DNA from: Bacteroidales bacterium
GTDB taxonomy: Bacteria > Bacteroidota > Bacteroidia > Bacteroidales > VadinHA17
Reading direction: 5' to 3'
Assembly (NCBI GenBank): GCA_038245405.1
Contig: JBBRSO010000002.1
Span: 2,366-66,365, forward strand
DNA: 64,000 nt
Below the pieces are notes generated by a model that was not told where the DNA came from, did no database searches, and saw only the letters and a program-made list of their open reading frames with translations. Both the position numbers and the translations under genes were made by a program. Positions within the stretch are counted from its first letter, which is position 1, and the number at the start of each line of letters is the position of its first letter. Of the stretch, positions 1 to 23,498 are shown one piece after another.

Positions 1-180
1 GTTTCCGATAACGAAGGCTCAACCGTAAACCGCATAAACATAGGTGGTGGCTGGTACATGATCGATAACATATTGCTTAAGCTGGATTATGTTGTCCAGA
101 AATATGATGGGCCAGCCCATGGAGATATTAGCGGGGGAAAATTTAACGGGGTGGTTTTTGAGGCGGCTATTTCTTTCTAA
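1..180 (+). CDS. 3' end of an outer-membrane beta-barrel/porin-like protein (5' part lies outside the window)
   Basis: Frame 1 is open from the window edge to TAA at 178-180. The translation ...GGGWYMIDNILLKLDYVVQKYDG...GVVFEAAISF* has an alternating beta-strand pattern and the terminal Phe typical of OM barrels. Confidence 0.45.
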   Translation, partial: VSDNEGSTVNRINIGGGWYMIDNILLKLDYVVQKYDGPAHGDISGGKFNGVVFEAAISF

Positions 181-242
181 AATTTTAAAAGTGAACAGAT
201 TGTGCCATGCATCCGGGGGCGATGAGTTTTTTGCATACTGAT

Positions 243-944: not shown

Positions 945-3114
945 AATTTAAAACAACTTTATTACTCTTAGCTTTATTTGTGGCAGCATTTACTGCACAG
1001 GCTCAAACAGATACTACTACTTACCAACTCACTCTGCGGCAGGAAACCGTGAACAAAGCCGGCAAAGACGTCAAGGGCATGACCATCAACGGGCAGATAC
1101 CCGGCCCAACACTGCGTTTTACCGAGGGGGATTATGCTGTTATATATGTCAAAAATGAGATGGATGTTGAGACTTCAATCCACTGGCATGGACTTTTATT
1201 GCCAAACTTTTATGATGGGGTACCCTATCTGACAACCCCACCCATTAAGCCCGGGGGAATCCAGAAATATGAATTTCCCTTAAAGCAATCCGGTACTTAT
1301 TGGTATCACTCACATACGATGCTTCAGGAACAAAGTGGCGTCTATGGTTCCATCGTGATTGAGCCCATAGAAAAGAAACTTGATTTTGACAAGGAACTGG
1401 TTTTGGTCTTGTCCGACTGGATCAATGAAAAACCGATGAATGCCCTGAGAACCCTGAAGCGGGGAAGTGAATGGTACCAAATAAAAAAAGGAACTGCTAA
1501 TCCTTTGAACCGCGTCATTTCCAGAGGAGCTTTGGGGGCACAGCTTAAATTTTGGAAACAACGTATGAATGGTGCAGACATTGCCGATATCTATTATCCG
1601 GCATTTCTGATAAACGGCAAGCAAAAACAGGAATATCCAGATTTAAAACCGGGAGAAAAAGTCAGGCTTCGCATTATCGACGGTGCGGCTTCAACCTCTT
1701 TCTAGATGACCTTCGGCGGGGTTGATCCTACCTTGGTTTCAGCCGACGGTAACAATGTTATACCAGTCGAGCGAAACAAAACCTTCATAGCCATTGCTGA
1801 AACCTATGATTTTATTGTAACGATTCCCGAAAACGGGGAAATTGAATTCCGGGCCACGGCTGCTGATGGTTCCGGGACAACGTCTGCCTATCTGGGACAA
1901 GGGAAAATCCTAGCTGCTCCGGATGTTCCCAAACCAGATAAGATTGGGATGATGAAACAGATGGCCAAAATGGATATGCGCATGGGTGCCCCGGCTTTAA
2001 AATTCAGACCGAAAAAGGATGATCCCAAAAAAATGAAAGATAAATGGGGACTGCAGATGGAAGGAAAAATGAATATGGCTATGGGGGACATGAAAGAGGG
2101 AAGCCAATCGGACGATACGAATTACAACTATTTGAGGTCTCCGGTAAAAACAACCTATCCGAAGGATGCACCAGTGCAAGAAATTTTGCTCAACCTAACA
2201 GGAAACATGAAACGTTATATCTGGAGCCTGAACGGCATTCCCCTTTCGGAAACGGGCAAAATAAAAATTAAGCAGGGAGAGGTCACCAGGATTACTTTGA
2301 ACAACCTGACAATGATGGATCATCCGATGCACTTGCATGGCCACTTCTTCAGGGTAATCAACAAAAATGGGGATTACTCTCCGCTTAAACACACGGTTAA
2401 TGTACCTGCCATGAATCAAGTTACTATTGAATTTTATGGACAAGAATACGGCGACTGGTTCTTCCATTGTCATATTCTCTATCATTTAGTGGGTGGGATG
2501 GCCAGGGTTATTAGCTACGATACTCCACGCGATCCCAGGTTGACAGGGTATCCTTTGAAGAAGCTCGTTCATGAAACCAATCGTTATTATACCTGGGGTT
2601 TGGCTGATCTGGCATCGCATAAAACAGCTTTGAACCTGGTTTCATCCAACATTAGAAACCAGTTTAACCTAAATGCCGAATATGGCTGGAACCAAAAAAT
2701 GGAGGCTGAATTTACTTATGAACGCTATTTGTACGATTATATCCGTGTATTTGCCGGTGTGAACGTGGAAAATACCAATCCAAACAGTCTTAACGATATT
2801 ATGACCACTGCCGTGGCCGGAATACGGTGGTTTACCCCATACATGTTTAACATGGACCTACGAATTGATAATGAGTTAAGGCCGAGGATCGGAATTGGCC
2901 GGGACTTGATGGTGTTTCCCCGGTTGTTAGCATTTGGATATTATGAATACAAATTTGACTTCGGCTGGGTCAACGATCTTTCGCCAAATAAAAATTTCGA
3001 AAAGGAAATTATTTGGAACGCCGGACTTGAATACATTCTCTCAAAGAATTTTTCTTTGATGCCAGCTTCGATAACCGCTTTGGTGTAGGTGGAGGTTTAA
3101 CTATAAGGTTCTAA
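941..3114 (+). pseudogene. multicopper oxidase (CopA/CueO-like) with a C-terminal beta-barrel-like extension, interrupted by an in-frame TAG and a terminal frameshift
   Basis: ORFs 941-1705 and 1706-3088 are in the same frame and are separated only by TAG 1703-1705. Together they carry the four MCO copper-ligand motifs (SIHWHGLL, YWYHSH, HPMHLHGH, HCHILYHLVGGM). Around the T-run at 3047-3060 the reading frame shifts. The alternative frame reads DASFDNRFGVGGGLTIRF* and ends at TAA 3112-3114. Confidence 0.8.
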
Positions 3115-3207
3115 TCCCATGTTTGGGAAAAGCATCTTCCGATATTTAGTTGAAATGGTTGCATTTGCATTGATATTACGAAATACACCCTCGGCAAGCT
3201 CTGCTCA

Positions 3208-3452
3208 GACAAATTCGATGTTTTGTGCTCGAAAATGTATGAATTTTGTAATTTATTTCAACAATTTTGTAACACTCTTCAAAGTAAAACTTTCCACCTT
3301 TGCAAACAGATAAATTAAAATTTTCTCAGACATAGAAAATGAAATGATTTATATCTTACATAAGGGAATAAATATTCAATATCAAAATGGGCAACAGCAT
3401 ATCTGAAGAATGGGCAACAGCATATCTGAAGAAAAATCTAATTCAAAAAGAC
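3208..3452 (+). promoter_or_regulatory. conserved upstream/leader region of the Met-rich protein gene (copy 1)
   Basis: About 245 bp align by eye at roughly 85% identity with 18986-19229, upstream of the paralog. Conserved elements are AATTTTGTAA at 3242-3251 and 3263-3272 (21-bp phasing), the palindrome TTTGCAAA at 3299-3306, and a perfect 23-bp tandem repeat TGGGCAACAGCATATCTGAAGAA at 3388-3410 and 3411-3433. Confidence 0.45.
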
Positions 3453-3995
3453 ATGAAAAATAAAAAAATGACTTCTACCATAATGGCTTCCTTGCTTATG
3501 CTCATGGGGTGCTTTATACCTGTCAACTCTTTTGCTCAAACAACAAACAAAGCTGTAGAGATGAAAGATGGTAAAATGATGGTTATTACAGATGGTAAAA
3601 CAATGCCTATGACCACTGAAATGACAATGAATAACGGAACAAAGTTTATGAAAAATGGCGAATTCATCACTAAGGACGGGAAAAAAATGAAGATGAAAGA
3701 AGGTGATAAGATGGATATGAGCGGGAATTTGACGCATGGTGATATGATGAACCAAGGTGATATGATGAACAATGATTACTATATGATGAAAAATGGTAAA
3801 ATGATGATGGTTATGAAGGACGGGAACGAAATGCCCATGACCAAAGATATGACTATGAAAAACGGAACCAAATTTATGATGAGTGGTGAATATATCATGA
3901 AAGACGGTAAAAAAATGAAAATGAAAGAGGGTGACAAGATCAATATGAACGGGAATATAAGTCATGGCGAAAAGATGATGGAAGGTAAGAAATAA
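3453..3995 (+). CDS. secreted methionine-rich tandem-repeat protein, putative periplasmic Cu(I)-binding protein
   Basis: The start was moved from 3387 to the ATG at 3453 because the paralog has a stop in the equivalent upstream frame. Signal peptide MKNKKMTSTIMASLLMLMGCFIPVNSFAQ. 34 of 151 mature residues are Met. There are two internal repeats of about 65 aa. Confidence 0.8.
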   Translation: MKNKKMTSTIMASLLMLMGCFIPVNSFAQTTNKAVEMKDGKMMVITDGKTMPMTTEMTMNNGTKFMKNGEFITKDGKKMKMKEGDKMDMSGNLTHGDMMNQGDMMNNDYYMMKNGKMMMVMKDGNEMPMTKDMTMKNGTKFMMSGEYIMKDGKKMKMKEGDKINMNGNISHGEKMMEGKK

Positions 3996-4282
3996 GAAAC
4001 CTGGGCGAAAACCTAAATTCACCTATAAAGGAATGAAGGAAGCGATGGGAAAATGAAATGATGAATAAGGAAAACCAGTCAGAACAGAAATAATACAATA
4101 ATCAAAATTAAACCAGGAATTATTTATTGATAAAGAAATAATGATTTAAATAAATTATTCGGGGTTGGGATTATAACGATTTATGACTTTTTGTAATTGA
4201 AAATTAATTTAATAGTTAAAAATCAGATTTGTGCATACTATGAAGCGTATTATATATTCACTTAATAAATAAGGAGGTTATT

Positions 4283-4426
4283 ATGGACATGGTACACGAT
4301 CCGGCAGCTTATGGATACGGGTTTCCCTGGCATTGGATTTTTGGAATAATTGTAGTTATTCTTGTTGGTTTTATAATTTTTAAGTTCATACAGCGAAAAA
4401 AGAAACAAAAATTCGATTCACACTGA
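4283..4426 (+). CDS. small (47 aa) single-pass membrane protein
   Basis: It is below the ORF-track cutoff. ATG 4283 is preceded by a canonical AAGGAGG (4271-4277) with a 5-nt spacer. Translation: MDMVHDPAAYGYGFPWHWIFGIIVVILVGFIIFKFIQRKKKQKFDSH*, i.e. an aromatic/Trp motif, one TM helix and a basic tail. Confidence 0.5.
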   Translation: MDMVHDPAAYGYGFPWHWIFGIIVVILVGFIIFKFIQRKKKQKFDSH

Positions 4427-4617
4427 GTTTTTCAAATAAGTCCTGTTCAACTACAGACTTTGATTAGTCGGTGTGTAGTTGCAAAAGAGAATCTTTTATT
4501 ATCGATTTGTTTTCGTAACAAAGTGAATCTTTATTGGAATAAGTAAAACTATGTTATCAGAACATTTCATTTACATTTTGAAATTCCTCAAATCATGTAG
4601 AAATTAAAATCTTAATT

Positions 4618-5133
4618 ATGAAAACCAGGATTATTCTTATTCTAAGCATCCCTGTCCTTTTATATGGCTGCAGCCAGACAAGCGACAAGGGACTAGGAAA
4701 TGGAACAGCGTGGGCGGTTGGATCATTCGATTCCAATGGCAAGCAGATCTATCTCAATTCCACAAGTCAACGCGGAACTCCAATCACTTATACCGGAGGT
4801 CCTGTAATGGGAATGATGATGACCGGAGGGAATCTTGCCTGCGCATCATGTCATGGTATTGATGGAAAGGGAGGTAAGCATGTGATGCATATGGAAGTAA
4901 TGGATTCCCCGGATATTCGTTGGACTGCATTGTCAATGCACCATCATGATAAAGGAGAAGCTGACTCATTAAAACAGCATAATGAAGAGGTTTATACCTT
5001 CGAAAACTTTAAAAACTCTGTTGAGAACGGCAAACATCCTGATGGAGATGAGGTCAGTAAGGATATGCCCCGCTGGAAAATGAGTGATGCAGATCTTAAA
5101 GATTTAATGGATTATCTTAAGTCATTGCAATAA
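4618..5133 (+). CDS. c-type cytochrome-like lipoprotein (CxxCH)
   Basis: Lipoprotein signal (LLYGCSQ). Haem-c motif in NLACASCHGIDGKGG, preceded by a Met run (GPVMGMMMTGG). Confidence 0.7.
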   Translation: MKTRIILILSIPVLLYGCSQTSDKGLGNGTAWAVGSFDSNGKQIYLNSTSQRGTPITYTGGPVMGMMMTGGNLACASCHGIDGKGGKHVMHMEVMDSPDIRWTALSMHHHDKGEADSLKQHNEEVYTFENFKNSVENGKHPDGDEVSKDMPRWKMSDADLKDLMDYLKSLQ

Positions 5134-5190
5134 CTGGCGCAATTTAAAGCCAGAATTTAAATTTTAAACTAACTTTTAATGTGAAATGTC

Positions 5191-5904
5191 ATGAGTTTAA
5201 GAAACATCTCAGGTTGTCTGATTTTATTCATTGGGACAGCATTTCCTGTAACCGGACAAGAAAATGAAAAAGGGAGCATGGCTGATATGTTTGTTCATCC
5301 TTTTCTGACGCATATGGCATTACCTGACCCGCCGGGAACAATGAGCCTGCGGTTAACTGCTTTTCAGCAAAGAATGGGATCGACGGTTGGTCAGGACTTA
5401 GGTGTACATATTGAAGCCGGTTTATTGCCAGGATTGGGAATACATATACGAAGTGACGGCATTAAGACGTCCCCTTACTCTGAAGTAATGTTAATGTACA
5501 GTTTTCTTCATGATGCAAACTATAATAATGGTTTAAGTATTTTCGGGCAGGTAAGCCTTCCTACAGGACCTGTTGAGTCAAATGCACTGAAGTATTTGTT
5601 TGGATTATCAGGTAGATTAACCATTCCTAAAATTATGGTTATGGACGCAAATATGCATATCAATTTAGCCGATAAAATGGCAGAATATGAAAGTTCATTT
5701 ATTTTTAAAGCAAGTAAGATGCTTTATCCTGAACTGGAATTCAGAGGGGTAATAAACAAAGATGCTATAAGTCTTTATTCACTTCTGGGTCTTAAATTCA
5801 GGATAGCTGACGAAATGGCCATTGGGGTTGGAATTCAGACTCCTATTACAACAACAAGAGAGTATGATACTCAGGCTTTAATGACTCTGGGAATTGCATT
5901 CTGA
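5191..5904 (+). CDS. putative outer-membrane beta-barrel protein
   Basis: Signal peptide (LILFIGTAFPVTGQ), alternating beta-strand pattern, and a C-terminal ...LGIAF*. Family not recognised. Confidence 0.55.
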   Translation: MSLRNISGCLILFIGTAFPVTGQENEKGSMADMFVHPFLTHMALPDPPGTMSLRLTAFQQRMGSTVGQDLGVHIEAGLLPGLGIHIRSDGIKTSPYSEVMLMYSFLHDANYNNGLSIFGQVSLPTGPVESNALKYLFGLSGRLTIPKIMVMDANMHINLADKMAEYESSFIFKASKMLYPELEFRGVINKDAISLYSLLGLKFRIADEMAIGVGIQTPITTTREYDTQALMTLGIAF

Positions 5905-5907
5905 TAA

Positions 5908-6027
5908 TCCCCTGACCCTCCAGAATTTTGGGGAATTGCCTCATTGGCTATTTTTATAGGAACCATAATAACCTATCCTATGAATTGGTGGATTGTTTCA
6001 ATTGGATGGAAACACGGAATGGCTTAG
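5908..6027 (+). pseudogene. relic of the C-terminus of a DUF4396-like membrane protein
   Basis: An open frame with no start codon begins right after the previous stop. It reads SPDPPEFWGIASLAIFIGTIITYPMNWWIVSIGWKHGMA* (TAG 6025-6027). From memory this resembles the last TM helix and tail of DUF4396 proteins found in copper loci. Only about 39 codons remain. Confidence 0.45.
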
Positions 6028-6075
6028 AGATTTATAATTGATTAGTGTAAATAAACCTATTTAAAATGAAGTAAA

Positions 6076-6681
6076 ATGATTAAAAGTATTATCCTAGGAT
6101 TAGCAATAGCTGGAACAGCTTTGGTAGCCTGCACTGGCACCGGAAACAAATCATTAGATGGCAATAACAACAGTAATGATATTAAGACCATATCTCAAAC
6201 TGATAATTCAACAGAATCAAAATTATCAGTTACAGATGTAGAGAAATCAGTTTCAATTAAAGGAATTGTTAGCGCATATTTAAAATTAAAAAATGCGTTT
6301 ACTGAAGACAATTCTGATGCTGCTGCCAAAGCAGGAAAGGCAATTGAAACGGCATTAAATAATTTTGATAAAACTAACATAACTGCTGATCAAAAGAAAA
6401 AATTTGAAGATATTGAAGTCGATGCAAAAGAACATGCAGAGCATATTGGGAAGAATAACGGAAATATTGCGCATCAGCGTGAACATTTTGAACTACTGAG
6501 CAAAGACATTTATGATCTTGTAAAAGATTTTGGGCCAGGACAAGCCTTATATAAAGATTTTTGTCCGATGTACAATAACGGGAAAGGTGCATTTTGGTTA
6601 AGTGAAACCAAAGAAATAAAAAACCCTTATTTTGGTAAATCAATGCCCTCCTGTGGCACAATTAAAGAAGAAATTAAATAG
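6076..6681 (+). CDS. DUF3347 domain-containing lipoprotein
   Basis: Lipoprotein signal (TALVACTG). The C-terminal ...DFCPMYNNGKGAFWLSETKEIKNPYFGKSMPSCG is characteristic of DUF3347 proteins in Bacteroidota metal loci. Confidence 0.75.
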   Translation: MIKSIILGLAIAGTALVACTGTGNKSLDGNNNSNDIKTISQTDNSTESKLSVTDVEKSVSIKGIVSAYLKLKNAFTEDNSDAAAKAGKAIETALNNFDKTNITADQKKKFEDIEVDAKEHAEHIGKNNGNIAHQREHFELLSKDIYDLVKDFGPGQALYKDFCPMYNNGKGAFWLSETKEIKNPYFGKSMPSCGTIKEEIK

Positions 6682-6691
6682 CAGGAACCTC

Positions 6692-7147
6692 ATGAAAAAG
6701 CTTCTTGTTGTTACTGGCATCCTATTTATTGCCATTCAATTTATAAGACCATCTCATAATAAAAAAGAACAGGTTCTGTCAGATGATATTTCAAAAGCAC
6801 TCATGGTTCCGGACAGTATTCAGAGTATATTAAAAAATTCCTGTTATGACTGTCATAGCAATAATACCCGATATCCCTGGTATTCAAATATACAACCCGT
6901 ATATTGGTTTATGAATAACGATATTAAGAAGGGTAAAAAGGAATTGAACTTTGATGAGTTTGGAAGTTATTCATCAAGAAGGCAACTAAGTAAACTAAAT
7001 GGAATCGAAAATGCAATAACAGAAGAGATCATGCCTCTCTCATCATATTTATTGATGCATAATACTGCCAGGCTTAGTACAAATGAAAAGACTATGCTGA
7101 TAAAATGGGCTCAACAATCAGAAGATAGCCTGTCAGCCAGTGAATAA
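6692..7147 (+). CDS. haem-binding domain-containing protein
   Basis: The start was moved to ATG 6692 (MKKLLVVTGILFIAIQF). The motif NSCYDCHSNNTRYPWYSNIQPVYWFMNNDIKKGKKELNFDEF matches the Haem_bd family. Confidence 0.75.
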   Translation: MKKLLVVTGILFIAIQFIRPSHNKKEQVLSDDISKALMVPDSIQSILKNSCYDCHSNNTRYPWYSNIQPVYWFMNNDIKKGKKELNFDEFGSYSSRRQLSKLNGIENAITEEIMPLSSYLLMHNTARLSTNEKTMLIKWAQQSEDSLSASE

Positions 7148-7166
7148 AGATGATTTCTAATCATCT
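7148..7166. terminator. hairpin between convergent genes (possible bidirectional terminator)
   Basis: AGATGATT (7148-7155), loop TCT, AATCATCT (7159-7166). This is a perfect 8-bp stem between the stop at 7147 (+) and the stop at 7180 (-). There is no clear U-tract. Confidence 0.3.
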
Positions 7167-7179
7167 TAGTGTTATGATA

Positions 7180-9300
7180 TCATTTTATTTTCAGAAGCCT
7201 TGCATTGATAGCAACAATCACCGTGCTTAAAGACATAAGGGCCGCGCCCAGTGCAGGAGTTAGTAACACACCCCATGCATATAGTGCTCCTGCTGCCATA
7301 GGGATTGCTATAGTGTTGTAACCTGTAGCCCATATAAGATTCTGAATCATTTTCCGGTAGGTGGCATGGGAAAGCTTCAATATAGCAACAACATCCAATG
7401 GATTACTTCTTACCAATATTACGTCTGCCGTTTCGACCGCTACATCAGAACCCGCTCCTATAGCAATACCAAGATCCGCCTGGGCAAGCGCCGGTGCATC
7501 GTTAACTCCATCACCGGTCATTGCTACTAATACGCCTCTTGATTGAACCTCCTTCACCTTGGCGGCTTTGTCCTGGGGCAGGACTTCTGCAAAGTATTCA
7601 TCCAGTCCGATCTGGTCTGATACCCATTTGGCTGTCGCTTTATTATCACCTGTTAGCATCATACACCGGATATTCAATGCTTTAAGGGCATCGATAGCTT
7701 GTTTTGCTTCTGGCCTCACAATGTCTGCAAGGGCAATTGCTCCTTTCAGATTGCCATCGACGAGGATAAACACGACCGTTTTTCCCTGTGCCTGCAGTGG
7801 TTCTATACGATTGTCGGTTATGTCAATGTTCTGTTCATGCAGGAAGCCCGGACTAACTACCTTGACCTCTTTGCCATCAACCTTTCCCTCTGCCCCTTTG
7901 CCCGGAATGCTTTTAAAGTTTTCTACGGGAATCTTCTTTTCTGAAGAAGCGGCGATGGCTTTAGCTATGGGATGTTCAGAATTTGCGTCTACAGAGGCGG
8001 CATATTTACGCAGTGTTTCTTCATCGATATCCTGAGAAAGTACAAGAATATCGGTAACACCAAAGCGACCCTCCGTTAACGTACCTGTCTTATCAAAAAT
8101 AACGGCCTGAAGCTTTCGCGCACCTTCAAAGGAAACCCGGTTACGAATGAGCAAGCCGTTTTTCGCAGCCAATGCTGTGGAGACGGCTATAACAAGCGGT
8201 ACGGCCAGACCAAGTGCATGAGGGCATGCAATTACCATCACGGTCACTGCGCGCTCGATAGCGAATGAAAAATCCTTGCCCGTAAGAACCAACCAGATAA
8301 CAAGGGTTGTCACGCCACCACCAAGGGCCACTATTGTAAGCCACTTTGCAGCAGTATTTGCCAGATCCTGGGTTTTTGATTTGCTTTCCTGTGCCTGCTT
8401 TACCAGACCAATAACCTGAGACAGGAATGAATCCTTACCGGTACCTTTAACCTCAATAGTCAGTGAACCCTCCCCATTAATCGAACCACCGATTACTTTC
8501 CCTCCTGCCTTTTTGATTGCCGGTGGTGATTCTCCGGTGAGCAACGCCTCATTTACTGAGCTCTCCCCTTCAACTATTACTCCATCAGCGGGGATTTTCT
8601 CACCTGGTTTAATCAGAACTTTATCATTCACAGCCAGCTCTCCAAGAGGCACATCTTTCACACTGCCATCCGGCATAAGTTTATGAGCATCAGACGGCAT
8701 TAATTTAGCTAGTTCCTCCAGTGCCTTCGACGCGCCCATCACGGACTTCATCTCAATCCAGTGCCCGAGCAACATGATATCTATAAGTGAAGCAAGTTCC
8801 CAGAAAAACATTTTACCAGCTAACCCGAATACAACAGCACTGCTGTAAAAATAGGCGGTTGAAATTGCCACGGAGATAAGCATCATCATTCCGGGCTGCC
8901 GGGCTTTTAATTCTGAGAACAAGCCTTTTAGAAACGGCCATCCACCATACCAAAATACCGCAGAAGAAAGTGCGAAGAGTACATAGATGTCACCATTAAA
9001 ATGAATGGTTTCCCGCAGTCCCACCAATTTCTGGAGCATTGGTGAGAGTACAAGAATCGGGAGGGTCAATATGAGCGATAACCAGAACCGCTTTCTGAAA
9101 TCTGCCGCCATATGAGCATGATGATCTGGCTGGTCATGGGGCATTTTAGCTTCGGCTTCAAGCCAGTTCTTCATGTCATGCCCTTTCGGACGGCCTTCCT
9201 TAAGATAGATAGCATATGCTTTTTTGGCCACTTCGTCGTGTTCCGGCTTCGATTCCTTAGCCTTAGGTTTGTTGTGATTATGTTCCATTTTTGTTTTCAT
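7180..9300 (-). CDS. copB: heavy-metal (copper) translocating P1B-type ATPase, CPH/CopB type
   Basis: Motifs TGES (LLTGESPP), CPH TM motif (VIACPHALGLAVP), DKTGT (FDKTGTLTEG) and GDGVNDAP. The N-terminus is His-rich (MEHNHNKP..., HDQPDHHAHM) and has no CxxC domain. Confidence 0.93.
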   Translation of the reverse strand: MKTKMEHNHNKPKAKESKPEHDEVAKKAYAIYLKEGRPKGHDMKNWLEAEAKMPHDQPDHHAHMAADFRKRFWLSLILTLPILVLSPMLQKLVGLRETIHFNGDIYVLFALSSAVFWYGGWPFLKGLFSELKARQPGMMMLISVAISTAYFYSSAVVFGLAGKMFFWELASLIDIMLLGHWIEMKSVMGASKALEELAKLMPSDAHKLMPDGSVKDVPLGELAVNDKVLIKPGEKIPADGVIVEGESSVNEALLTGESPPAIKKAGGKVIGGSINGEGSLTIEVKGTGKDSFLSQVIGLVKQAQESKSKTQDLANTAAKWLTIVALGGGVTTLVIWLVLTGKDFSFAIERAVTVMVIACPHALGLAVPLVIAVSTALAAKNGLLIRNRVSFEGARKLQAVIFDKTGTLTEGRFGVTDILVLSQDIDEETLRKYAASVDANSEHPIAKAIAASSEKKIPVENFKSIPGKGAEGKVDGKEVKVVSPGFLHEQNIDITDNRIEPLQAQGKTVVFILVDGNLKGAIALADIVRPEAKQAIDALKALNIRCMMLTGDNKATAKWVSDQIGLDEYFAEVLPQDKAAKVKEVQSRGVLVAMTGDGVNDAPALAQADLGIAIGAGSDVAVETADVILVRSNPLDVVAILKLSHATYRKMIQNLIWATGYNTIAIPMAAGALYAWGVLLTPALGAALMSLSTVIVAINARLLKIK

Positions 9301-9328
9301 TGATTAAAACATAAACCAGATCACTAAA

Positions 9329-9538
9329 TCACTTTCTTCTTCTGGCCACAAAATAAACCAGCAGTAAAACTATTCCCACACCAATAAGTATTGGAACCCA
9401 ATTCCAGTTACCCATGTTCATTGACCTGCCACCTCCGTTCATCATTCCCTGGTCAGTATTGCAGGCCACTATTATAGCCGCAAATGATATAAAATAAAGT
9501 GCAGTTTTTATTATTTGCCAAATTCTTGATGATTTCAT
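9329..9538 (-). CDS. small Met/Trp-rich membrane-anchored protein upstream of the ATPase
   Basis: 69 aa. N-terminal lipoprotein-like signal (FAAIIVAC), then QGMMNGGGRSMNMGNWNW, a TM helix and an RRRK tail. It lies 28 bp upstream of copB on the same strand. Confidence 0.55.
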   Translation of the reverse strand: MKSSRIWQIIKTALYFISFAAIIVACNTDQGMMNGGGRSMNMGNWNWVPILIGVGIVLLLVYFVARRRK

Positions 9539-9603
9539 AGTTATCTTTTATTCGTTAATCTATAGTTACTATACTTTTATCCTTTTTACGGAAATGAGGG
9601 ATC

Positions 9604-10473
9604 TCAAGGATTAAATGCCCCTAAAGTCCATATATCTTCTGCAGTGATGCGCAGATGATAATTTGGAAATGATAAAACAGGAATAAAAGCTTTGTTTATC
9701 ATCTGGTGGGCAAAGTTACCTAACAGTAAATTGGAAGCGCTTTTCTCCTGCTCAGTCATTATTGAGATCAGGTCGGCATTAACCGATCGTGAATAATCGA
9801 GAGTTAAATCAGTAATATTGCTGCCATGAAGATGTTCAACTTTATAAGGAACATTATGACTTTCAAGGTAGGAAGCTACCTGATCAGAATACTGATTCAG
9901 CTTTTTCTCAATACTCTTTAAATTTGATAGCCGGATAGTAAGCAGATGAATTTCTGATCCGAATATTTTTGCCAGGTTTACTGTATACGGTACCTTTTCC
10001 CGCGTCTGAAAAGTAATATCCAGTGGTAGTACAATTGTATTAATACCTGAAGGTATTTTACTTCTTCTGACAGTGATTACAGGATTCCTTGAATGAGAGG
10101 TTATTTTGTACGCATTGCCTCCAATAAACAATTCTTCAAAACCAGAAGTCCCGTGTGTTGAAAGAACCGTGAGCGCGTCTTCATACTTATCAGCCAGATC
10201 TGCTACTTCCTTAAACACCTTGCCTTCTTTAATGCTGTAACCCAGTGTAGAGGTTAACTTGTACTTCTCTTTATACTTTTGAACTATTTCTTCAAATTTT
10301 GTTTTTTCAAGTTGGTTTTCCTTTTCCAGCTGGTTATAATAGTTTCCGGTTTCCTTTCCAATAACATGAACCATTTGGATATTTGCTCCGGTTTTAGCTG
10401 CCAGCATCACTGCCAGGTCTAGTCCAACATAAGACTCATCCGAGAAATCCAGGGGAACGATAATTGTTTTCAT
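9604..10473 (-). CDS. universal stress protein (tandem Usp domains)
   Basis: 289 aa. MKTIIVPLDFSDES... start and two Usp-like halves (...LTVLSTHGTSGFEELFIGGNAYKI... and ...LISIMTEQEKSASNLLLGNFAHQM...). Confidence 0.85.
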   Translation of the reverse strand: MKTIIVPLDFSDESYVGLDLAVMLAAKTGANIQMVHVIGKETGNYYNQLEKENQLEKTKFEEIVQKYKEKYKLTSTLGYSIKEGKVFKEVADLADKYEDALTVLSTHGTSGFEELFIGGNAYKITSHSRNPVITVRRSKIPSGINTIVLPLDITFQTREKVPYTVNLAKIFGSEIHLLTIRLSNLKSIEKKLNQYSDQVASYLESHNVPYKVEHLHGSNITDLTLDYSRSVNADLISIMTEQEKSASNLLLGNFAHQMINKAFIPVLSFPNYHLRITAEDIWTLGAFNP

Positions 10474-10491
10474 TTTTTTATTTATAAATAT

Positions 10492-10632
10492 TTAAATTTT
10501 ATCCTGCTTTATACACCTATTATGCTCCTTCGAGCCAGATTCATCCTCTTTAACAAGCTTACCGCTAAGCTGAACTTCCAGCAATTTGCCGCTATCCGGT
10601 TCATTTAGTTTTACATTCATAACACTTTTCAT
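10492..10632 (-). pseudogene. possible truncated STAS/SEC14 (DUF3478-like) gene relic
   Basis: A 46-codon frame starting at ATG 10632 (MKSVMNVKLNEPDSGKLLEVQLSGKLVKED...). The first ~30 aa look like the N-terminus of ~120-aa STAS-like proteins, after which similarity is lost and a stop follows. Weak call. Confidence 0.25.
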
Positions 10633-17691: not shown

Positions 17692-18738
17692 TTATGGCTC
17701 AATAATAACTTTCATTGTCTTGTTCTTTGTGGCATTGCCGAAAACTTCATAAGCATGAAGAATCTCCTCCAGTTTGAAATGATGAGTTATAAGCTTGCCA
17801 GGGTATATTTTGCCTGATGAAACTGTTTTCAGGAGCATAGGAGTAGTATTTGTATTTACCAATCCGGTAGTAAGAGTTATGTTTCGAATCCACAGATCCT
17901 GAAGTTTAAGATCCACGCTATGCCCGTGAACACCGACTACAGCAATATGTCCACCAGGACGAACTATATTCTGGCAAATTTCGAAAGTGTCAGAAATACC
18001 TACTGCTTCAATGGATACATCCACACCATCTTTTGTTTCTGACATTATCTTTTTTACGGCATCTTCCGACCCGGAATTGATGATATTGGTGGCTCCGAAT
18101 TTTTTGGCCATATTTAATCGATTATCATCCAGATCGATCATGTAGATTTTTGCAGGTGAGTAGAAAAGAGCAGTCAGGAGTGCCGACATCCCTACCGGTC
18201 CCGCACCAACGATTGCAATTGTGTCTCCTGGTTTTACGGTTCCGTTCAGTACTCCAATTTCATGACCCGTCGGCAATATATCGCTTAACATTACCAATGC
18301 TTCCTCGTCAGCACCTGTCGGAACATGGTGAAGGCTGTTGTCGGCATGCGGAATACGCACGTATTCTGCCTGGGTACCATTAATGATGTTTCCAAGGATC
18401 CATCCTCCATCTTCGCAATGGGAGTACATTTGTTTTTTACAGTATTCACAAACGCCATCGGAGGTAATACAAGAAATGATAACATGGTCTCCTTTTTTAA
18501 AGTTCATTACAGCAGTACCAGCCTCCTCAATAACGCCAATGCCTTCATGTCCAAGAATAGTTCCTTTCTGAACTGATGGAGTCTTCCCTTTTAAAATACC
18601 CAAATCTGTTCCGCAAATAGTGGTTTTCAATATTTTAACTAGTGCATCTGTGGGTTTCAGAATAACTGGTTTTGGCACCTCTTTTAATTCTATTTTCCCT
18701 GTTCCGTTAAATACGAGACCCTTCATTGTTGTTTTCAT
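17692..18738 (-). CDS. zinc-dependent alcohol dehydrogenase family protein
   Basis: 348 aa. GHEGIGVIEEAG catalytic Zn motif, a structural Zn Cys cluster (CEYCKKQMYSHC) and the GAGPVG Rossmann motif. Confidence 0.85.
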   Translation of the reverse strand: MKTTMKGLVFNGTGKIELKEVPKPVILKPTDALVKILKTTICGTDLGILKGKTPSVQKGTILGHEGIGVIEEAGTAVMNFKKGDHVIISCITSDGVCEYCKKQMYSHCEDGGWILGNIINGTQAEYVRIPHADNSLHHVPTGADEEALVMLSDILPTGHEIGVLNGTVKPGDTIAIVGAGPVGMSALLTALFYSPAKIYMIDLDDNRLNMAKKFGATNIINSGSEDAVKKIMSETKDGVDVSIEAVGISDTFEICQNIVRPGGHIAVVGVHGHSVDLKLQDLWIRNITLTTGLVNTNTTPMLLKTVSSGKIYPGKLITHHFKLEEILHAYEVFGNATKNKTMKVIIEP

Positions 18739-18785
18739 CTGGTTATTTTATTTATTATTTGACTTTTATACTTTCTGCAAAACGC

Positions 18786-18990
18786 TCATTTTAAGACACC
18801 GGCAGCCCCGGAAAAACACGCTTGCCGTAAACCGATAAATTCCCGATCATCGCAATAATAGGTTCTTGATTTGGACGGTTTGTCGTCCGCTTATTGTTGT
18901 TGAACGAGACTCATAGACAAAACGCTCCATCTCAACAATTTGTTCAATTATTATTCTTATTAAAGCGCCTAATTTCATGATGCAGGACAA
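18786..18990 (-). pseudogene. degraded duplicate of the 3' end of the glucoamylase/GH144-like gene
   Basis: Two DNA blocks match the 3' end of the gene at 20893-21823. 18809-18840 (CCGGAAAAACACGCTTGCCGTAAACCGATAAA) matches 20906-20937. 18846-18873 (ATCATCGCAATAATAGGTTCTTGATTTG) matches 20993-21020. About 48 bp between the blocks is missing here. No intact frame remains. The upstream extent is uncertain. Confidence 0.4.
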
Positions 18991-19229
18991 ATTCGAGGCA
19001 TTGTGCTTGAAAATGTATGAATTTTGCAATTTATTCCAAAAATTTTGTAACACTATTCAGGATAAAGCTTTCAACCTTTGCAAACAAATAAATTTAAATT
19101 TTCTTGTACATAGAAAATGCAATGATTTATATCTGACATAAAGAACAAATATCCAATATAAAAATGGGCAACAGCATATCTGAAGAATGGTCAACAGCAT
19201 AACTGAAGAAAAATCTAATTCAAGTAAAA
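18986..19229 (+). promoter_or_regulatory. conserved upstream/leader region of the Met-rich protein gene (copy 2)
   Basis: Paralog of 3208-3452. AATTTTGCAA at 19020-19029 and AATTTTGTAA at 19041-19050 are 21 bp apart. It also has the TTTGCAAA palindrome and the 23-bp tandem repeat, with 2 mismatches in the second unit. Confidence 0.45.
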
Positions 19230-19670
19230 ATGAAAAATAGAAAATTTAATACTCTGGCATTATCGCTTATGCTTATGGGATGCTTTATATCAGGGAGCTC
19301 TTTTGCTCAAACCACCACCAAAGCTGTAGAGATGAATCAAGGAAATATGATGAATAATGGTGATACATTGAATCATAACAAGATGATGAATCATGGTAAT
19401 ATGATGAATAATAATGATACGTTGAGTCATGGTAAGATGATGAATAATGATTACTACATGATGAAAGCCGGTAAAATGATGATGGTCATGAAGGACGGGA
19501 AAGAAATGCCCATGAATAAAGACATAACTATGAATAATGGGACCAAATGTATGACGAATGGCGAATACGTCACAAAAGACGGTAAAAAAATGAAAATGAA
19601 AGAGGGCGACAGGATTGATATGAACGGGAATATGAGTCATGGCGAAATGATGAATAGAGGTAAGAAATAA
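19230..19670 (+). CDS. secreted methionine-rich protein, paralog of 3453-3995
   Basis: 146 aa. Signal peptide MKNRKFNTLALSLMLMGCFISGSSFAQ. 25 of 119 mature residues are Met. It has one copy of the ~65-aa unit, preceded by (N/H)G(N/K)MMN repeats. Confidence 0.8.
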   Translation: MKNRKFNTLALSLMLMGCFISGSSFAQTTTKAVEMNQGNMMNNGDTLNHNKMMNHGNMMNNNDTLSHGKMMNNDYYMMKAGKMMMVMKDGKEMPMNKDITMNNGTKCMTNGEYVTKDGKKMKMKEGDRIDMNGNMSHGEMMNRGKK

Positions 19671-19837
19671 TAAATCAGGGCGGAAATCCATGTCGTGAGC
19701 GATGGGAAAATGAAACCCACATGATTGATTCAGTCATAAACACGGAGGTAAATAATAATTGTGGATGATAAAGTACCTTCGGCAGGAATGCCGGAACATA
19801 GTCAAATTATTGAATTGAAAAATAAAAACAAAACATC

Positions 19838-20224
19838 ATGAAGTACTACATTGAAAAAACCACCAATTATTCTTTCGACGAAGCCGTTGAAAAAGTGACC
19901 GAAGAACTAAAAAAAGAAGGCTTTGGCGTACTGTCAGAAATTAACATCCACGAAAAACTGAAAGAAAAGCTGGATGTGAATTTCAGAAAATATAAGATTT
20001 TAGGAGCTTGTAACCCATCAAAGGCTTATGAAGCCTTGCAGGCAGAAGACAAAATAGGCACCATGCTGCCCTGTAATGTAATTGTACAGGAACTGGAAGA
20101 CGGAAAAACCGAAGTGGCTGCAGTTGACCCGACAGCTTCGATGCAGGCCGTGGATAACGAAAAACTTGCATCCATTGCCGGCGAAATAAAAGGAAAACTT
20201 GAAAAGGTAATCAGGAATTTGTAA
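19838..20224 (+). CDS. DUF302 domain-containing protein
   Basis: 128 aa. ...SFDEAVEKVTEELKKEGFGVLSEINIHEKLKEKL...YKILGACNP...LPCNVIVQE... is typical of DUF302. Confidence 0.85.
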   Translation: MKYYIEKTTNYSFDEAVEKVTEELKKEGFGVLSEINIHEKLKEKLDVNFRKYKILGACNPSKAYEALQAEDKIGTMLPCNVIVQELEDGKTEVAAVDPTASMQAVDNEKLASIAGEIKGKLEKVIRNL

Positions 20225-20268
20225 AAACTAGCAAGCAGAAAATCTATAAATGCAGGAGGAAACTGTAA

Positions 20269-20808
20269 ATGGAAACAAAAGAAAAAACACACAGTATCTA
20301 CTTGAAATTTTTTGTGATGATAGGCACATCTATGGTTGCAATGTTCTTTTTGATGTATTTGAATTCCTACCAAATCATCGATCACTTTTGGTTTAGTGAA
20401 ACGCGGTTATACATGACTTTGATTATGGGCGGGGCTATGATAGTGATAATGCTCTTGTTTATGATCAGGATGTATACTAACAGCAAAGCAAACTCAGCGA
20501 TTATTATTGGTGGCATCGTCCTGCTTGCTGCTTCGGTATGGCTGGTCAGAAGTCAGGTTACAGTCAGCGATGTTGATTATATGGAAGGTATGATCCCTCA
20601 TCATTCCATCGCCATTCTCACAAGTAAAAATGCAGTGATCGAAGATGTGAGGGTTAGGGAACTTGCAGATGGAATCATAAAAGCTCAACGCAAGGAAATC
20701 AAGGAAATGGAATGGTTGATTAAAGACATCAGGAAAAATGGTTTGGTGAAAACAACGGCAGAATCAGAATCTCGTTCGGTCCCGGAATTCGCAAGCACAA
20801 CGGAGTAG
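20269..20808 (+). CDS. DUF305 domain-containing membrane protein
   Basis: 179 aa. N-terminal TM helices, then ...YMEGMIPHHSIAI...ELADGIIKAQRKEIKEMEWL..., the DUF305 signature. Confidence 0.8.
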   Translation: METKEKTHSIYLKFFVMIGTSMVAMFFLMYLNSYQIIDHFWFSETRLYMTLIMGGAMIVIMLLFMIRMYTNSKANSAIIIGGIVLLAASVWLVRSQVTVSDVDYMEGMIPHHSIAILTSKNAVIEDVRVRELADGIIKAQRKEIKEMEWLIKDIRKNGLVKTTAESESRSVPEFASTTE

Positions 20809-20892
20809 AGGAAACTCAGGTTTCCAGGAAAATAAGGCTTTAAAAGTGAAAAGGATGGCAAGATAAAATGCTTCTGATTTATGAAGTTTGAG

Positions 20893-21823
20893 TCACAACC
20901 AGCCTCCGGAAAAACCTGCACGCCGTAAACCGTTAATTATGTATGGACAGTTCCGCATCAGTCTCCATAAAAGGCCTGTTCTATAATTCTCTATCATCGC
21001 AATTATTGGTCCCTGATTGATCCCAAAATGCCACGGAGAGACCCAGCCATAAGGATTTTGGGATTTATGAGGATATGTAGGATTAAATGTCGCTTTGAAA
21101 CCATAAGGATTACCCGTTTTCAACCTTAACTCGTGCGTCATATAGTCAAGCGCCGGCAACACGATCTCAGGAGCAAAAGGTAGGGAAGCTACGACTGCCC
21201 ATGGTGCAATGGTGCCATCATCAGGACCATACGGTACACCGCGACCTTTGTAATCGAAATACCGGTGCTTCTGCCCATCTGTTATACGGGCACCAGGACC
21301 GGGGCCGTCGCTTGCGGTAATTCCCCAGGAATTCCGGCCATAACCTGCAAATTTATGCGGGTTGTCGATCGCATATTGTTGCTGAACGTAGGTCCTGCTC
21401 GTCAGGCGTATCGGCATCAAAGTAAACACCAGTTGTAAGAGCGCCAGCGAATAAAATGGCGCTGTCGACAGTCGACAGTTCGCATTTCCAGGCGCGCTGA
21501 CCTGTTTTCATGTCGAGGAAATGATAATAAAAACCGTGGTAGCCTGTTGCGTCAGGTTCAGGTCCCTGAAGGCTGTTCCAGAAAAACCGAAGTGTTGTAA
21601 GTACTGTTTCAATGGCAGAATCACGAGTGATAAACCCTCGCTCAACTGCTACAGGGTAACTTGCCAATGCCAGACCTGTGGCAGCAATACTCGAAGGCCA
21701 ATTTGGTGCGGTCTTGTCTGAGACCAATCCATTTTCCGGATTGGTCTCATGAAGGAAGTAACCGAATGTCTCGCACTGAAGTCTTTCAAGTTCGGTTTCG
21801 GCTGTGGTTTTCTTACTGCTCAT
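20893..21823 (-). pseudogene. glucoamylase-family/GH144-like (PF10091-type) gene with an internal out-of-frame deletion
   Basis: ORFs 21353-21823 and 20893-21429 overlap in different frames. The N-part ends ...ALTTGVYFDADTPDEQD and the C-part homology starts at TYVQQQYAIDNPHKFAGYG...GITASDGPG...YGPDDGTIAPWAVVASLPFAPE. The junction is at about 21386-21400. The central part of the family is absent. Confidence 0.7.
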
Positions 21824-21836
21824 TATATCATCATAT

Positions 21837-23498
21837 TTATCCGCTCCCCGGCTTACCCATATGTAATGAGTCGTTAACGATTAATTGCGCTTCATCAAGT
21901 ATTCGTTTCAAATGATCTGTTCCCTTAAAGCTTTCTGCATAAATCTTATATATATTTTCTGTCCCTGACGGACGCGCTGCAAACCATCCGTTTTTGGCAA
22001 TAACCTTTAATCCCCCTATAGGTGCACCGTTGCCTGGTGCGTGGGTGAGTACAGATTGCATTTTTTCACCTGCCAGATCAGTGATCTTAACCAGCTCGGG
22101 CGAGAGTTTAGCAAGCTGAACTTTTTGTTCGGCGGTTGCCGGTGCTTCGAAACGGTCATAAACCGGTTCTCCGAACTGTTCAGTAAGTTTTTTATATATT
22201 TCGCCAGGATCAAGGCCAACCCGGGCAGTAATTTCGGCAGCCAGCAGCGCAGGGACAATGCCATCTTTATCTGTTGTCCATACTTTACCATTTTTACGCA
22301 TAAAAGAGGCGCCTGCACTCTCTTCTCCTCCAAAACCCAGGGAACCATTAAATAATCCATCCACAAACCACTTAAAACCCACCGGTACTTCGTAGAGCTT
22401 TCTGCCAAGTTTTGAGGTTATCATATCTATCAGCTGACTGCTCACAACAGTTTTGCCCACAGCTGCTATTTTGCTCCACTCTGGCCTGTGCCGAAAGAGA
22501 TAATCGATTGCAACAGAAAGGTAATGGTTCGGGGGAAGCAAACCCGAACTCTTTGTAACAATACCATGTCTGTCGTGATCGGTATCGCAGGCTAATGAAA
22601 TATCGAATTGATCTTTAATTGCAATCAGTCTCTGCATTGCATAAGGTGAAGAAGGATCCATCCGGATCTGACCATCCCAATCGACTGTCATAAAACGGAA
22701 AGTAGGATCCACGGTTTCATTTACAACCGTAAGGTCCAATCCATAGCATTCAGCTATTGGCTGCCAGTAATGGACCCCGGCACCACCGAGAGGATCAACC
22801 CCAATTTTAATTTTTGATGACCGGATAACATCCATGTCTATTATGGAATCAAGATCGTTTATGTAGGTATTATGAAAATCATACCTGTGAGTTGTGGTAG
22901 CATGAAGAGCTTTTTCAAATGAAATCCTTTTTACATCCTTAAGCTTATCTTTAAGAATTCCGTTTGCTTTCTTCTCAATCCATCCTGTTACATTATCATT
23001 AGCAGGTCCTCCGTTTGGCGGATTATATTTAAAACCGCCATCCTTTGGGGGATTATGAGAAGGAGTAATCACTATTCCATCAGCAAGCCCGGTTTTTCTG
23101 TCTCTATTATATCTTAAAATAGCATGTGAAATGACAGGAGTAGGAACATATTCATCATTTTCGGCCAGCATAACCTGAACACTATTTCCGGCTAATACTT
23201 CCAGTGCTGTTACAAGTGCAGGCTCTGAGAGAGCATGTGTGTCCTTTCCAAGAAACAAGGGGCCATCTATTTTATTCCGGATCCGGTATAAACAGATTGC
23301 CTGGGTTACAGCAAGAATATGCCATTCATTAAATGAAGTATCAAATGATGAACCCCTATGACCGGAAGTCCCAAACATAACTTTTTGTTCTCTTACATTT
23401 ATGTCAGGGATTTCAGAGAAATAGCTTGTTATAAGTTTGGGAATATTTACAAGTATCTCATTACTAGCAGGCTTGCCTGCTAATTGACTTATATCCAT
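21837..23498 (-). CDS. pgm: phosphoglucomutase, alpha-D-glucose phosphate-specific
   Basis: 553 aa. FGTSGHRGSS, the active-site loop TPSHNPPKDGGFKYN, ...DTDHDRHGIV... and ...GGEESAGASF... Confidence 0.93.
   Translation of the reverse strand: MDISQLAGKPASNEILVNIPKLITSYFSEIPDINVREQKVMFGTSGHRGSSFDTSFNEWHILAVTQAICLYRIRNKIDGPLFLGKDTHALSEPALVTALEVLAGNSVQVMLAENDEYVPTPVISHAILRYNRDRKTGLADGIVITPSHNPPKDGGFKYNPPNGGPANDNVTGWIEKKANGILKDKLKDVKRISFEKALHATTTHRYDFHNTYINDLDSIIDMDVIRSSKIKIGVDPLGGAGVHYWQPIAECYGLDLTVVNETVDPTFRFMTVDWDGQIRMDPSSPYAMQRLIAIKDQFDISLACDTDHDRHGIVTKSSGLLPPNHYLSVAIDYLFRHRPEWSKIAAVGKTVVSSQLIDMITSKLGRKLYEVPVGFKWFVDGLFNGSLGFGGEESAGASFMRKNGKVWTTDKDGIVPALLAAEITARVGLDPGEIYKKLTEQFGEPVYDRFEAPATAEQKVQLAKLSPELVKITDLAGEKMQSVLTHAPGNGAPIGGLKVIAKNGWFAARPSGTENIYKIYAESFKGTDHLKRILDEAQLIVNDSLHMGKPGSG

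Follow-up and report, generated by a model that had tools for sequence, protein, structure and literature searches.

A single (Campbell-type) crossover, or template switching during replication, leaves a direct duplication flanking the DNA that has been integrated. In the effector loci of the Rhs, CDI and T6SS systems, displacement of genes leaves orphaned 3' ends, which are proposed to arise by homology-facilitated illegitimate recombination (HFIR; PMC5361080; PMC3240628, in which HFIR is defined). The domain DUF305 is that of the copper-binding protein CopM, for which an HH motif has been described (PMC4335983).

We analyzed a window of 64,000 nucleotides (the whole stretch of DNA, to which all coordinates refer), in which a small operon is bracketed by two copies of the 3' part of one gene of the glucoamylase family (PF10091). 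An earlier note had reported this bracketing, had described the insert (~2.1 kb) as lying on the strand opposite to all of its neighbors, and had suggested that one of the two copies came with it. The bracketing is real, and the strands are as described: the three genes of the insert are on the + strand and all neighbors are on the - strand. We came to a different view of the two copies. Relatives at approximately 90% identity are referred to as L001 and L002; these were the only two recovered in protein searches, and each covers one flank. The features of the locus are as follows.

17692-18738, - strand: zinc-dependent alcohol dehydrogenase (adh) gene (Pfam ADH_N, ADH_zinc_N), the native neighbor of the relic
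18739-18802, - strand: remnant of the pyruvate kinase (pyk) 3' end (~18795-18755) and native upstream region of adh
18803-18906, - strand: pseudogene relic of the 3' part of the PF10091 gene, three blocks, 104 nt
18907-18985, no strand: spacer between the relic and the duplicated promoter, 79 nt, no match of 13 or more in the window
18986-19715, + strand: Met-rich gene unit (promoter and leader 18986-19229, protein 19230-19670, short tail)
19756-20843, + strand: DUF302-DUF305 module (DUF302 19838-20224, DUF305 20269-20808)
20844-20892, no strand: stretch between the module and the resident stop codon, 49 nt
20893-21393, - strand: 3' part (C) of the resident PF10091 gene, 497 nt colinear with L002 6279-6775 (89%)
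21394-21823, - strand: 5' part (A) of the resident PF10091 gene, colinear with L002 5470-5910 (90%)
21837-23498, - strand: phosphoglucomutase (pgm) gene (Pfam PGM_PMM domains I-IV), the native upstream neighbor of the resident gene
3208-4058, + strand: source-like paralog of the Met-rich unit, inside the copper island of the window

The relic consists of blocks at 18876-18906, 18838-18871 and 18803-18838. Both of the blocks reported previously exist, with 26 of 31 positions identical between 18808-18838 and 20906-20936, and 28 of 34 between 18838-18871 and 20985-21018. The third, which the earlier note did not have, is colinear with these (18876-18906 versus 21358-21388, 26/31). The order and orientation of the blocks are the same in the relic (18906-18803) and the resident gene (21388-20901), making them direct copies around the insert. 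We ranked block homology by ungapped matches; loose gapped alignment over-aligned noise. When 18740-18985 was compared with both strands of the 64-kb window, the three blocks were the top three non-self matches (scores of 19, 18.5 and 18.5), and the runner-up scored 13. The similarity of the blocks had been left to a statistical test. In a test against the resident gene, the best score among 300 dinucleotide shuffles was 12.5, and none reached the 18.5-19 of the relic blocks.

The shuffle result, and the fact that three top colinear matches all fall in one gene, argue against chance similarity. An assembly chimera might be suspected, as the window appears to be from a metagenome-assembled genome, and the right-hand junction and a deletion of 368 bp described below rest on one assembly. 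However, a Logan contig from a separate assembly (L167) is 100% identical to window positions 19212-17385, across the promoter, spacer, relic and adh, so the junctions in this part are not an artefact of one assembly. In addition, the relic and the resident copy are never identical over more than 11-13 nt, a length at which an assembler would not confuse them. We regard the probability of chance or chimera as next to negligible.

The relic is a dead pseudogene of the 3' part of the PF10091 gene. Relative to the resident copy it lacks 49 nt between the two blocks first noted, which shifts the frame (the gap had been reported as approximately 48 bp; it is present, and only its size needed correction), and a further 335 nt between the second and third blocks, which also shifts the frame. 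It carries in addition a 1-nt deletion. Read in the frame of the homologous gene, it gives VQQQ*ADDKP, NQEPIIAMIGN and IGLRQACFSGA, with a TAA stop interrupting block 3. We also considered whether the relic extends upstream of 18906, and rejected this because 18907-18990 had no match above shuffle level in the full-length genes of L001, L002 and L003.

The resident gene, previously taken as intact, has an internal, frameshifting deletion of 368 bp with its junction at 21393/21394; L002 positions 5911-6278 are absent. This deletion was seen in one assembly, and we found no second assembly to confirm it. Part C matches positions 85-221 of the 221 of the Pfam Glycoamylase profile (E = 4.8e-51). 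Full-length PF10091 homologs are 432-435 amino acids long. The PF10091 gene is extremely conserved. The dN/dS of parts A and C versus L001 and L002 was 0.12-0.29, the same as that of L001 versus L002, which indicates that the resident copy was under selection until recently. Judging from its sequence, then, the resident gene is a fresh pseudogene, apparently broken by a recent, clean 368-bp deletion. The 368-bp gap could have been the junction of the insertion, with the gene dead ever since, but this was rejected because parts A and C show purifying selection like that on intact orthologs. For annotation, the "glucoamylase" gene of this locus should not count as functional.

The relic occupies the ancestral position of the gene. 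In L002, the order is an intact PF10091 gene, a pyk remnant, adh and mlaD (amino acid identities of 93% for adh and 88% for mlaD); in another relative (L168), pyk is followed by adh; and in L001, pgm is directly followed by the glucoamylase-family gene, the two adjoining as they do in the window. The segment next to the relic (18739-18802) aligned with the pyk 3' end and adh upstream region of L168 (local alignment score 48) and with the spacer of L002 (shuffle test, p = 0.001), and 18703-18766 was 83.8% identical to L002 by blastn. The 9-mer CCGGTGTCT (18794-18802) was also found in L002, at the junction just past the stop codon of the gene. The relic thus passes directly into the pyk remnant and the upstream region of adh, in the place that the intact gene has in L002 and pyk has in L168, and therefore probably did not arrive with the cassette.

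This result bears directly on the earlier reading, in which the cassette brought a foreign, diverged relic and the resident 3' end is native. The divergence of the relic (~81% identity to the resident copy) and the presence of parts of the cassette at other loci are consistent with that reading. The continuity with pyk and adh argues against it, as do the 79 matchless nucleotides between relic and cassette and the fact that the DUF302-DUF305 module is never beside a PF10091 gene in the relatives that carry it. We consider it quite unlikely. The suggestion that relatives would have the site without the cassette was borne out by the arrangements in L002 and L001, with the amendment that the ancestral order is glucoamylase-pyk-adh and not glucoamylase-adh. 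There was no intact second paralog in the relatives, of which the databases contain only two close ones.

More distant genomes added little. A genome scan with the PF10091 protein gave only matches of ≤80% identity, in many phyla, and a metagenome scan with adh gave matches of ≤84%, none with a PF10091 gene beside it. Exact look-ups of five window proteins, including DUF302, DUF305 (P0121), the 156-aa N-terminal ORF of the PF10091 gene and pgm, found none. There was no intermediate state among the relatives found.

The relic is old. It is identical to the resident copy and to L002 at 82 of 101 sites each, and to L001 at 80 of 101. Fourteen of the 101 sites have changes private to the relic, and none of the four changes private to the resident copy is present in it; across these 101 sites only, the two have no derived site in common. 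At three variable sites, the relic sides with L002 against the resident copy. Its equal distance from the resident copy, L002 and L001 and its lack of the private changes of the resident copy show that the relic was not copied recently from the resident 3' end.

The insert is a 2-kb composite of two separately derived pieces. The first is the Met-rich unit, which encodes a secreted protein rich in Met, Asn and His (Pfam DUF6799, E = 1.7e-21). Its promoter and gene had been recognized as paralogous to the region 3208-4070, and we confirmed this for 3208-4058, with 88.7% identity over 239 nt upstream and 617 of 728 aligned nucleotides (~85%) identical overall. The two units are on the same strand and 15.7 kb apart, and the 3208-4058 copy has two DUF6799 domains. 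The latter lies in a copper island with a YceI-like protein, a multicopper oxidase, a cytochrome c, DUF3347, a haem-binding domain and a P-type ATPase. The closest known relative of the Met-rich piece is in the same window.

The second piece is the DUF302-DUF305 module, the limits of which were set where homology ends in alignments to three copies in relatives. These copies (L166, 86.5% nucleotide identity; L164, 81.7%; L165, a partial match) are each in a different gene context. The genome that contains L001 also has the 86.5%-identical copy, downstream of an aldolase gene there; the divergence of this copy is similar to that of the flanking genes (88-90% identity). Within the module there is a conserved element upstream of DUF302, within 19778-19817, and a GGAAAC/GTTTCC hairpin at 20810-20825. 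Pfam PF03625 and PF03713 were above their cut-offs; the DUF305 protein scored 38.2 bits against the PF03713 cut-off of 27, and its translation has an HH motif (IPHHS). The modules of the relatives adjoin genes for CzcCBA-type efflux, P-type ATPases and a heavy-metal-binding domain. On the basis of these domains and gene contexts, the operon most likely works in the periplasmic buffering of copper and other metals.

We found no signatures of a mobile element at this locus, in agreement with the earlier note. The genes of the insert are those for DUF6799, DUF302 and DUF305 only, none of which is a transposase, and Pfam scans of 49 larger ORFs of the window (a set without the two largest, at 52.7-60.2 kb) gave no transposase or integrase domains. 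There were no terminal inverted repeats, the only inverted pair near the ends being of 14 nt (86%) and inside functional parts, and no short target-site duplication, the flanking repeat being a diverged gene fragment of >100 nt. No tRNA was found. In a search of the window against Rfam, nothing reached the gathering threshold, and relaxed E-values gave chance-level snoRNA matches around the leader. In a plasmid collection, the matches were limited to distant genes for DUF305 and DUF302 (66-72% identity), without an element in common with the window. The GC content of the module (0.392) is close to the window mean (0.398), and neither GC nor GC3 gave a foreign signal for it; the Met-rich unit is low in GC, to the same degree as its paralog. 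The GC check that had been suggested for 19.0-20.9 kb thus revealed no compositional anomaly.

Our best explanation, which we favor tentatively, is an in-place duplication with insertion, by illegitimate or template-switch recombination without a transposase or integrase, followed by decay. The locus would have started with pgm, followed by the PF10091 gene, pyruvate kinase and adh. In the present lineage, a 3'-terminal stretch of ~500 bp or more of the PF10091 gene (the 3' part or the whole gene) would have been doubled in direct orientation. The Met-rich gene and promoter that the genome already had, copied and joined to a DUF302-DUF305 module, would have come to lie between the two copies by an illegitimate or replication template-switch route. 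The copy on the pgm side may then have stayed functional, with the copy on the pyk and adh side dead from the start and eroded together with pyk, by deletions and substitutions, to a stub of 104 nt. Much later, the 368-bp deletion would have killed the surviving copy. As no derived state is common to the relic and the resident copy, an in-place duplication would date back approximately to the split from L001 and L002.

Unlike the anatomy of the locus, the position and age of the relic, the composite insert and the lack of mobile-element signatures, the mechanism of the duplication and the role of the operon in metal handling are things that we infer. Past the resident stop codon, 49-63 nt compared with the L002 spacer, the pyk end of L168 and the sequence downstream in L001 gave p = 0.22 to 0.98 with three scoring schemes. 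The string TCAGAAGCAT...TTGCC in this stretch looked similar by eye, and was dropped on these shuffle values. Neither the 79 nt on one side of the insert nor the 49 nt on the other has a match, which makes the junctions unreadable.

The lack of shared changes is equally expected if the two copies stem from different lineages. In a related donor, the cassette may already have lain just past the PF10091 gene, and an import anchored on homology, resembling HFIR, could have used a homologous crossover in pgm or the gene at one end and an illegitimate one at the far end, within the PF10091 gene of the recipient. The recipient's 5' part would then have been replaced by the intact gene and cassette of the donor, and the recipient's 3' end would have been orphaned beside pyk and adh. 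Such an import accounts for the native position of the relic, for its equal distance from the resident copy, L001 and L002 with none of the private changes of the former and three sites in agreement with L002, and for continued selection on the intact copy; the same logic has been proposed for the orphaned 3' ends of Rhs and T6SS loci (PMC5361080). On the other hand, no genome was found with the cassette adjoining the PF10091 gene, the genome containing L001 has the module elsewhere, and the window itself contains the closest known relative of the Met-rich piece. The resident copy is not closer to L001 than it is to L002, a compositional signal of foreign DNA is absent, and HFIR is reported as rare. 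We judge import to be nearly as likely as in-place duplication, and by itself possible rather than probable.

In-place duplication, the reading that we prefer, does not explain why the 5' edge of the relic is near an edge of the recent deletion. The 5' limit of the relic corresponds to L002 6280-6284 and the 3' edge of the 368-bp deletion to L002 6279, 1-5 nt apart, and the breakpoint sequence in the PF10091 gene is GCTACC/TACGTTCAGC (the slash marks the break). The shared edge might be the sign of a sequence-specific site at which breaks recur, perhaps cut by a nuclease or used by an unrecognized homing-type insertion process that could also have placed the cassette there; we think this very improbable. 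Unless the shared breakpoint proves recurrent, the locus opens no new mechanism.

The value of these findings is chiefly for annotation and for the reconstruction of history. They show the metal operon at 19-20.9 kb to be composite and to have arrived secondarily in what was a carbohydrate and stress locus, and they provide a clean example of an operon assembled without mobile-element genes. The locus is eroding across the clade, with losses in pyk, the PF10091 gene and, in a relative, 6PGD; in L001, both pyk and 6PGD are eroded.

Like the resistance cassettes borne by transposons and integrons, the insert is a small, self-contained set of metal genes with its own promoter, opposite to its neighbors; it differs from them in having no transposase, integrase, terminal inverted repeats, target-site duplication, tRNA or att-like site. 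The comparison with CopM and Met-rich periplasmic copper binders (PMC4335983) rests on a DUF305 domain above the Pfam cut-off with the HH motif here too, on the Met/His-rich secreted neighbor, and on the RND efflux and P-type ATPase genes in the contexts of relatives, all pointing to the handling of copper or other metals. CopM has two DUF305 domains, whereas the window protein has one, behind an N-terminal membrane region, is paired with DUF302, and is known here from sequence and gene context.

The orphans of Rhs, CDI and T6SS loci resemble this locus in that the conserved part occurs twice, in direct orientation, around new DNA, with the downstream copy truncated at its 5' end and without a transposase. 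Those loci are arrays with new 3' ends of the same gene, whereas this locus is a single event; what has been inserted is a metal operon in the opposite orientation, the orphan is heavily decayed and non-coding, and there is no known donor arrangement. A duplication of the Campbell or template-switch type is similar in that two direct copies of one segment bracket the insert and part of the insert copies a locus 15.7 kb away; it differs in that the copies here are ~81% identical without shared derived changes, and the junctions cannot be read. From ordinary bacterial pseudogene decay there is no essential difference: the relic is interrupted by a stop codon and by deletions that shift the frame, its private substitutions are in excess, pyk has eroded too, and the relic is an extreme end stage of ~100 nt. 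The locus is an ordinary scar of a past genome rearrangement and not a new kind of mobile element.

The glucoamylase-like (PF10091) gene was described in the earlier note as recurring near 18.8 kb in two blocks, with about 48 bp missing between them. Direct reading and a repeat search recovered both, block 1 at 18808-18838 (26/31 identical to 20906-20936) and block 2 at 18838-18871 (28/34 identical to 20985-21018). The missing DNA is real and measures 49 nt. A third colinear block had been overlooked (18876-18906 against 21358-21388; 26/31), and a further 335 nt are missing between blocks 2 and 3. When 18740-18985 was compared with both strands of the whole window by ungapped scoring, the three blocks were the best non-self matches (19, 18.5 and 18.5; runner-up, 13), and 300 dinucleotide shuffles compared with the gene gave a maximum of 12.5. 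The feature is real, spotted correctly if described slightly too sparsely, and chance similarity or an assembly artefact is effectively excluded. Block 3 reads VQQQ*ADDKP in the homologous frame; given this stop codon and the missing 49 and 335 nt, the stub (18803-18906, minus strand) is a dead pseudogene fragment.

Homologous loci in relatives were used for comparison of gene order.

Gene order at homologous loci ("gene" is the PF10091 gene; pyk, pyruvate kinase)
L002 (GCA_038247205.1): intact gene, approximately 100 nt, adh (93% at the amino acid level), mlaD-like gene (88%)
L001 (GCA_038207725.1): pgm, gene, split pyk, 6PGD fragment, ackA, XFP
L003 (more distant): pgm ... gene, 6PGD
L168 (Logan contig; 92.7% to L002, 89.3% to the window): pyk 3' end immediately upstream of adh

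Neither L002 nor L001 has a cassette beside the gene, in keeping with the insertion proposed in the earlier note. The spacer between gene and adh in L002 (6795-6892) consists of ~95 nt of the pyk 3' end (score 104.5), and the window retains ~25-40 nt of that end between the relic and adh. Together with L168 and the relatives' gene orders, these pyk ends give the ancestral order pgm, gene, pyk, adh, mlaD, 6PGD, ackA, XFP, in which the relic occupies exactly the gene's own place. Independent support for the left junction comes from Logan contig L167, which matches window 19212-17385 at 100% identity. The earlier note had the relic travelling together with the cassette, which is improbable because the relic continues directly into pyk and adh. 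A possible L002-type junction is CCGGTGTCT (18794-18802); if it is one, pyk loss common to both lineages would be implied, but the adh similarities count against a shared loss. In L001 (11337-12886) a split, shortened pyk is followed by a 6PGD of just 112 aa. In this clade the locus as a whole is undergoing erosion.

The relic did not derive recently from the resident 3' end. Over 101 alignable sites it matched the resident copy (20893-21823, minus strand) at 82, L002 at 82 and L001 at 80; these three genes were mutually identical at 91-94. Fourteen changes were private to the relic, which had none of the resident copy's 4 private changes or of L002's 3. Given that dS between the lineages is ~0.4 over this portion of the gene, the relic has drifted for a time roughly equal to that since these species split.

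The resident gene is broken too. Full-length homologs have 432-435 aa, and in its C-terminal ORF (20893-21429) the Pfam PF10091 match starts only at profile position 85 of 221. Two clean alignment segments (21834-21394 to L002 5470-5910, 90%; 21393-20897 to 6279-6775, 89%) indicate that L002 5911-6278, a frame-shifting 368 bp, is absent. The deletion is recent, since both retained parts lack stop codons and have a dN/dS of 0.12-0.29 against L001 and L002, the same as L001 against L002. A search for a second assembly bearing the deletion gave no confirmation. Homology of the relic starts at L002 coordinate 6280-6284 and the deletion ends at 6279, placing edges of greatly different age ≤5 nt apart in a 1.3-kb gene. 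By rough estimate, one edge alone would coincide this closely by chance about 1% of the time, rising to perhaps 5-8% when every deletion edge of the relic is counted. No repeat or microhomology accounts for the shared breakpoint, and a recurrent break site is a slight possibility.

The PF10091 protein (window 20893-21823; loci L004-L083 in other genomes) is 67-80% identical across MAGs of many phyla (labeled Bacteroidales, Betaproteobacteria, Acidobacteriota, Chloroflexi, Gemmatimonadota, Planctomycetota and others), and its gene is the window's GC outlier (0.484 vs 0.398), which suggests that the gene is exceptionally conserved, has spread widely by horizontal transfer, or both. It typically adjoins stress-related and carbohydrate-related genes, among them Usp, XFP, ackA, pgm and 6PGD.

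The insert (18907-20892, genes on the plus strand) is composite.

Parts of the insert
18986-19715, same strand as its paralog at 3208-4058: Met-rich unit, 88.7% over the 239-nt upstream region and 617/728 nt overall
19756-20843: DUF302-DUF305 module, 86.5% to L166 and 81.7% to L164

The promoter and first gene are thus paralogous to the 3208-4058 region, as had been claimed, and the insert is built at least partly from its own genome's DNA. The module lies downstream of an aldolase gene in L001's genome (L166), adjoins CzcCBA-type efflux genes and a P-type ATPase in L164, and occurs only in part in a Paludibacter MAG (L165, 9778-10568), where most of the DUF302 gene is gone (equivalent to window 19877-20137) and the upstream element and DUF305 are kept. 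This element, TTCGGCAGGAATGCCGGAACATAGTCAAATTATTGAATTG (window 19778-19817; palindrome CGGCA..TGCCG), is conserved upstream of DUF302 in L165 and L166 in differing genomic contexts and may act as an operator or promoter element. The insert's outer edges (79 and 49 nt) had no matches in the window or in the relatives' genes and flanks. Consistent with the earlier note, scans of 49 of the larger ORFs gave no transposase or integrase domain, and there are no terminal inverted repeats; searches for a tRNA, an Rfam family and a related plasmid element were also negative. The GC check proposed in the earlier note showed nothing foreign in the module, whose value (0.392) equals the window mean (0.398); the Met-rich unit is low in GC, to the same degree as its paralog.

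Three genes make up the insert, encoding a secreted Met/Asn/His-rich DUF6799 protein, a DUF302 protein and a membrane-anchored DUF305 protein with an HH motif. DUF305 is the domain of CopM, a copper-binding resistance protein (PMC4335983), and with the module beside metal efflux genes in relatives, a reasonable reading is that the insert would serve in copper/metal buffering, driven by a duplicated copper-island promoter. The paralog lies in this copper-homeostasis island (1-10500, at the window's left end), among genes for a YceI-like protein, a multicopper oxidase, a two-domain DUF6799 protein, cytochrome c, DUF3347, a haem-binding domain protein, a P-type ATPase (with N-terminal DUF2934) and Usp. 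The single multicopper oxidase frame (941-3088, plus strand) is broken by one in-frame TAG (1703-1705) followed immediately by ATG, with Pfam Cu-oxidase_3 5' and Cu-oxidase_2 3' of the stop; a nonsense mutation, a sequencing error and recoding are the candidate explanations. In both Met-rich genes a 23-bp tandem repeat stands immediately 5' of the start codon (19160-19205; 3387-3432). The leader of copy 2 holds a 12-codon ORF, MGNSISEEWSTA* (19164-19202), ended by a stop codon; the equivalent ATG in copy 1 reads in frame into the main gene. This leader had no Rfam match and may be regulatory.

Both flanks are native, and one copy is old and dead, the other long under selection. We tentatively favor in-place duplication with insertion, in which illegitimate or template-switch recombination would have been followed by decay of the downstream PF10091 copy and pyk. 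A close second, itself rather unlikely, is homology-anchored import from a relative already carrying the cassette after its gene; the equal distance of the relic to the three genes fits import as well as it fits old duplication. The feature is an ordinary rearrangement scar with pseudogene decay, a new instance of a familiar phenomenon. The scheme of import has been put forward to explain orphaned 3' ends of Rhs and T6SS loci (PMC5361080; PMC3240628), and here it would likewise leave the recipient's 3' end orphaned.
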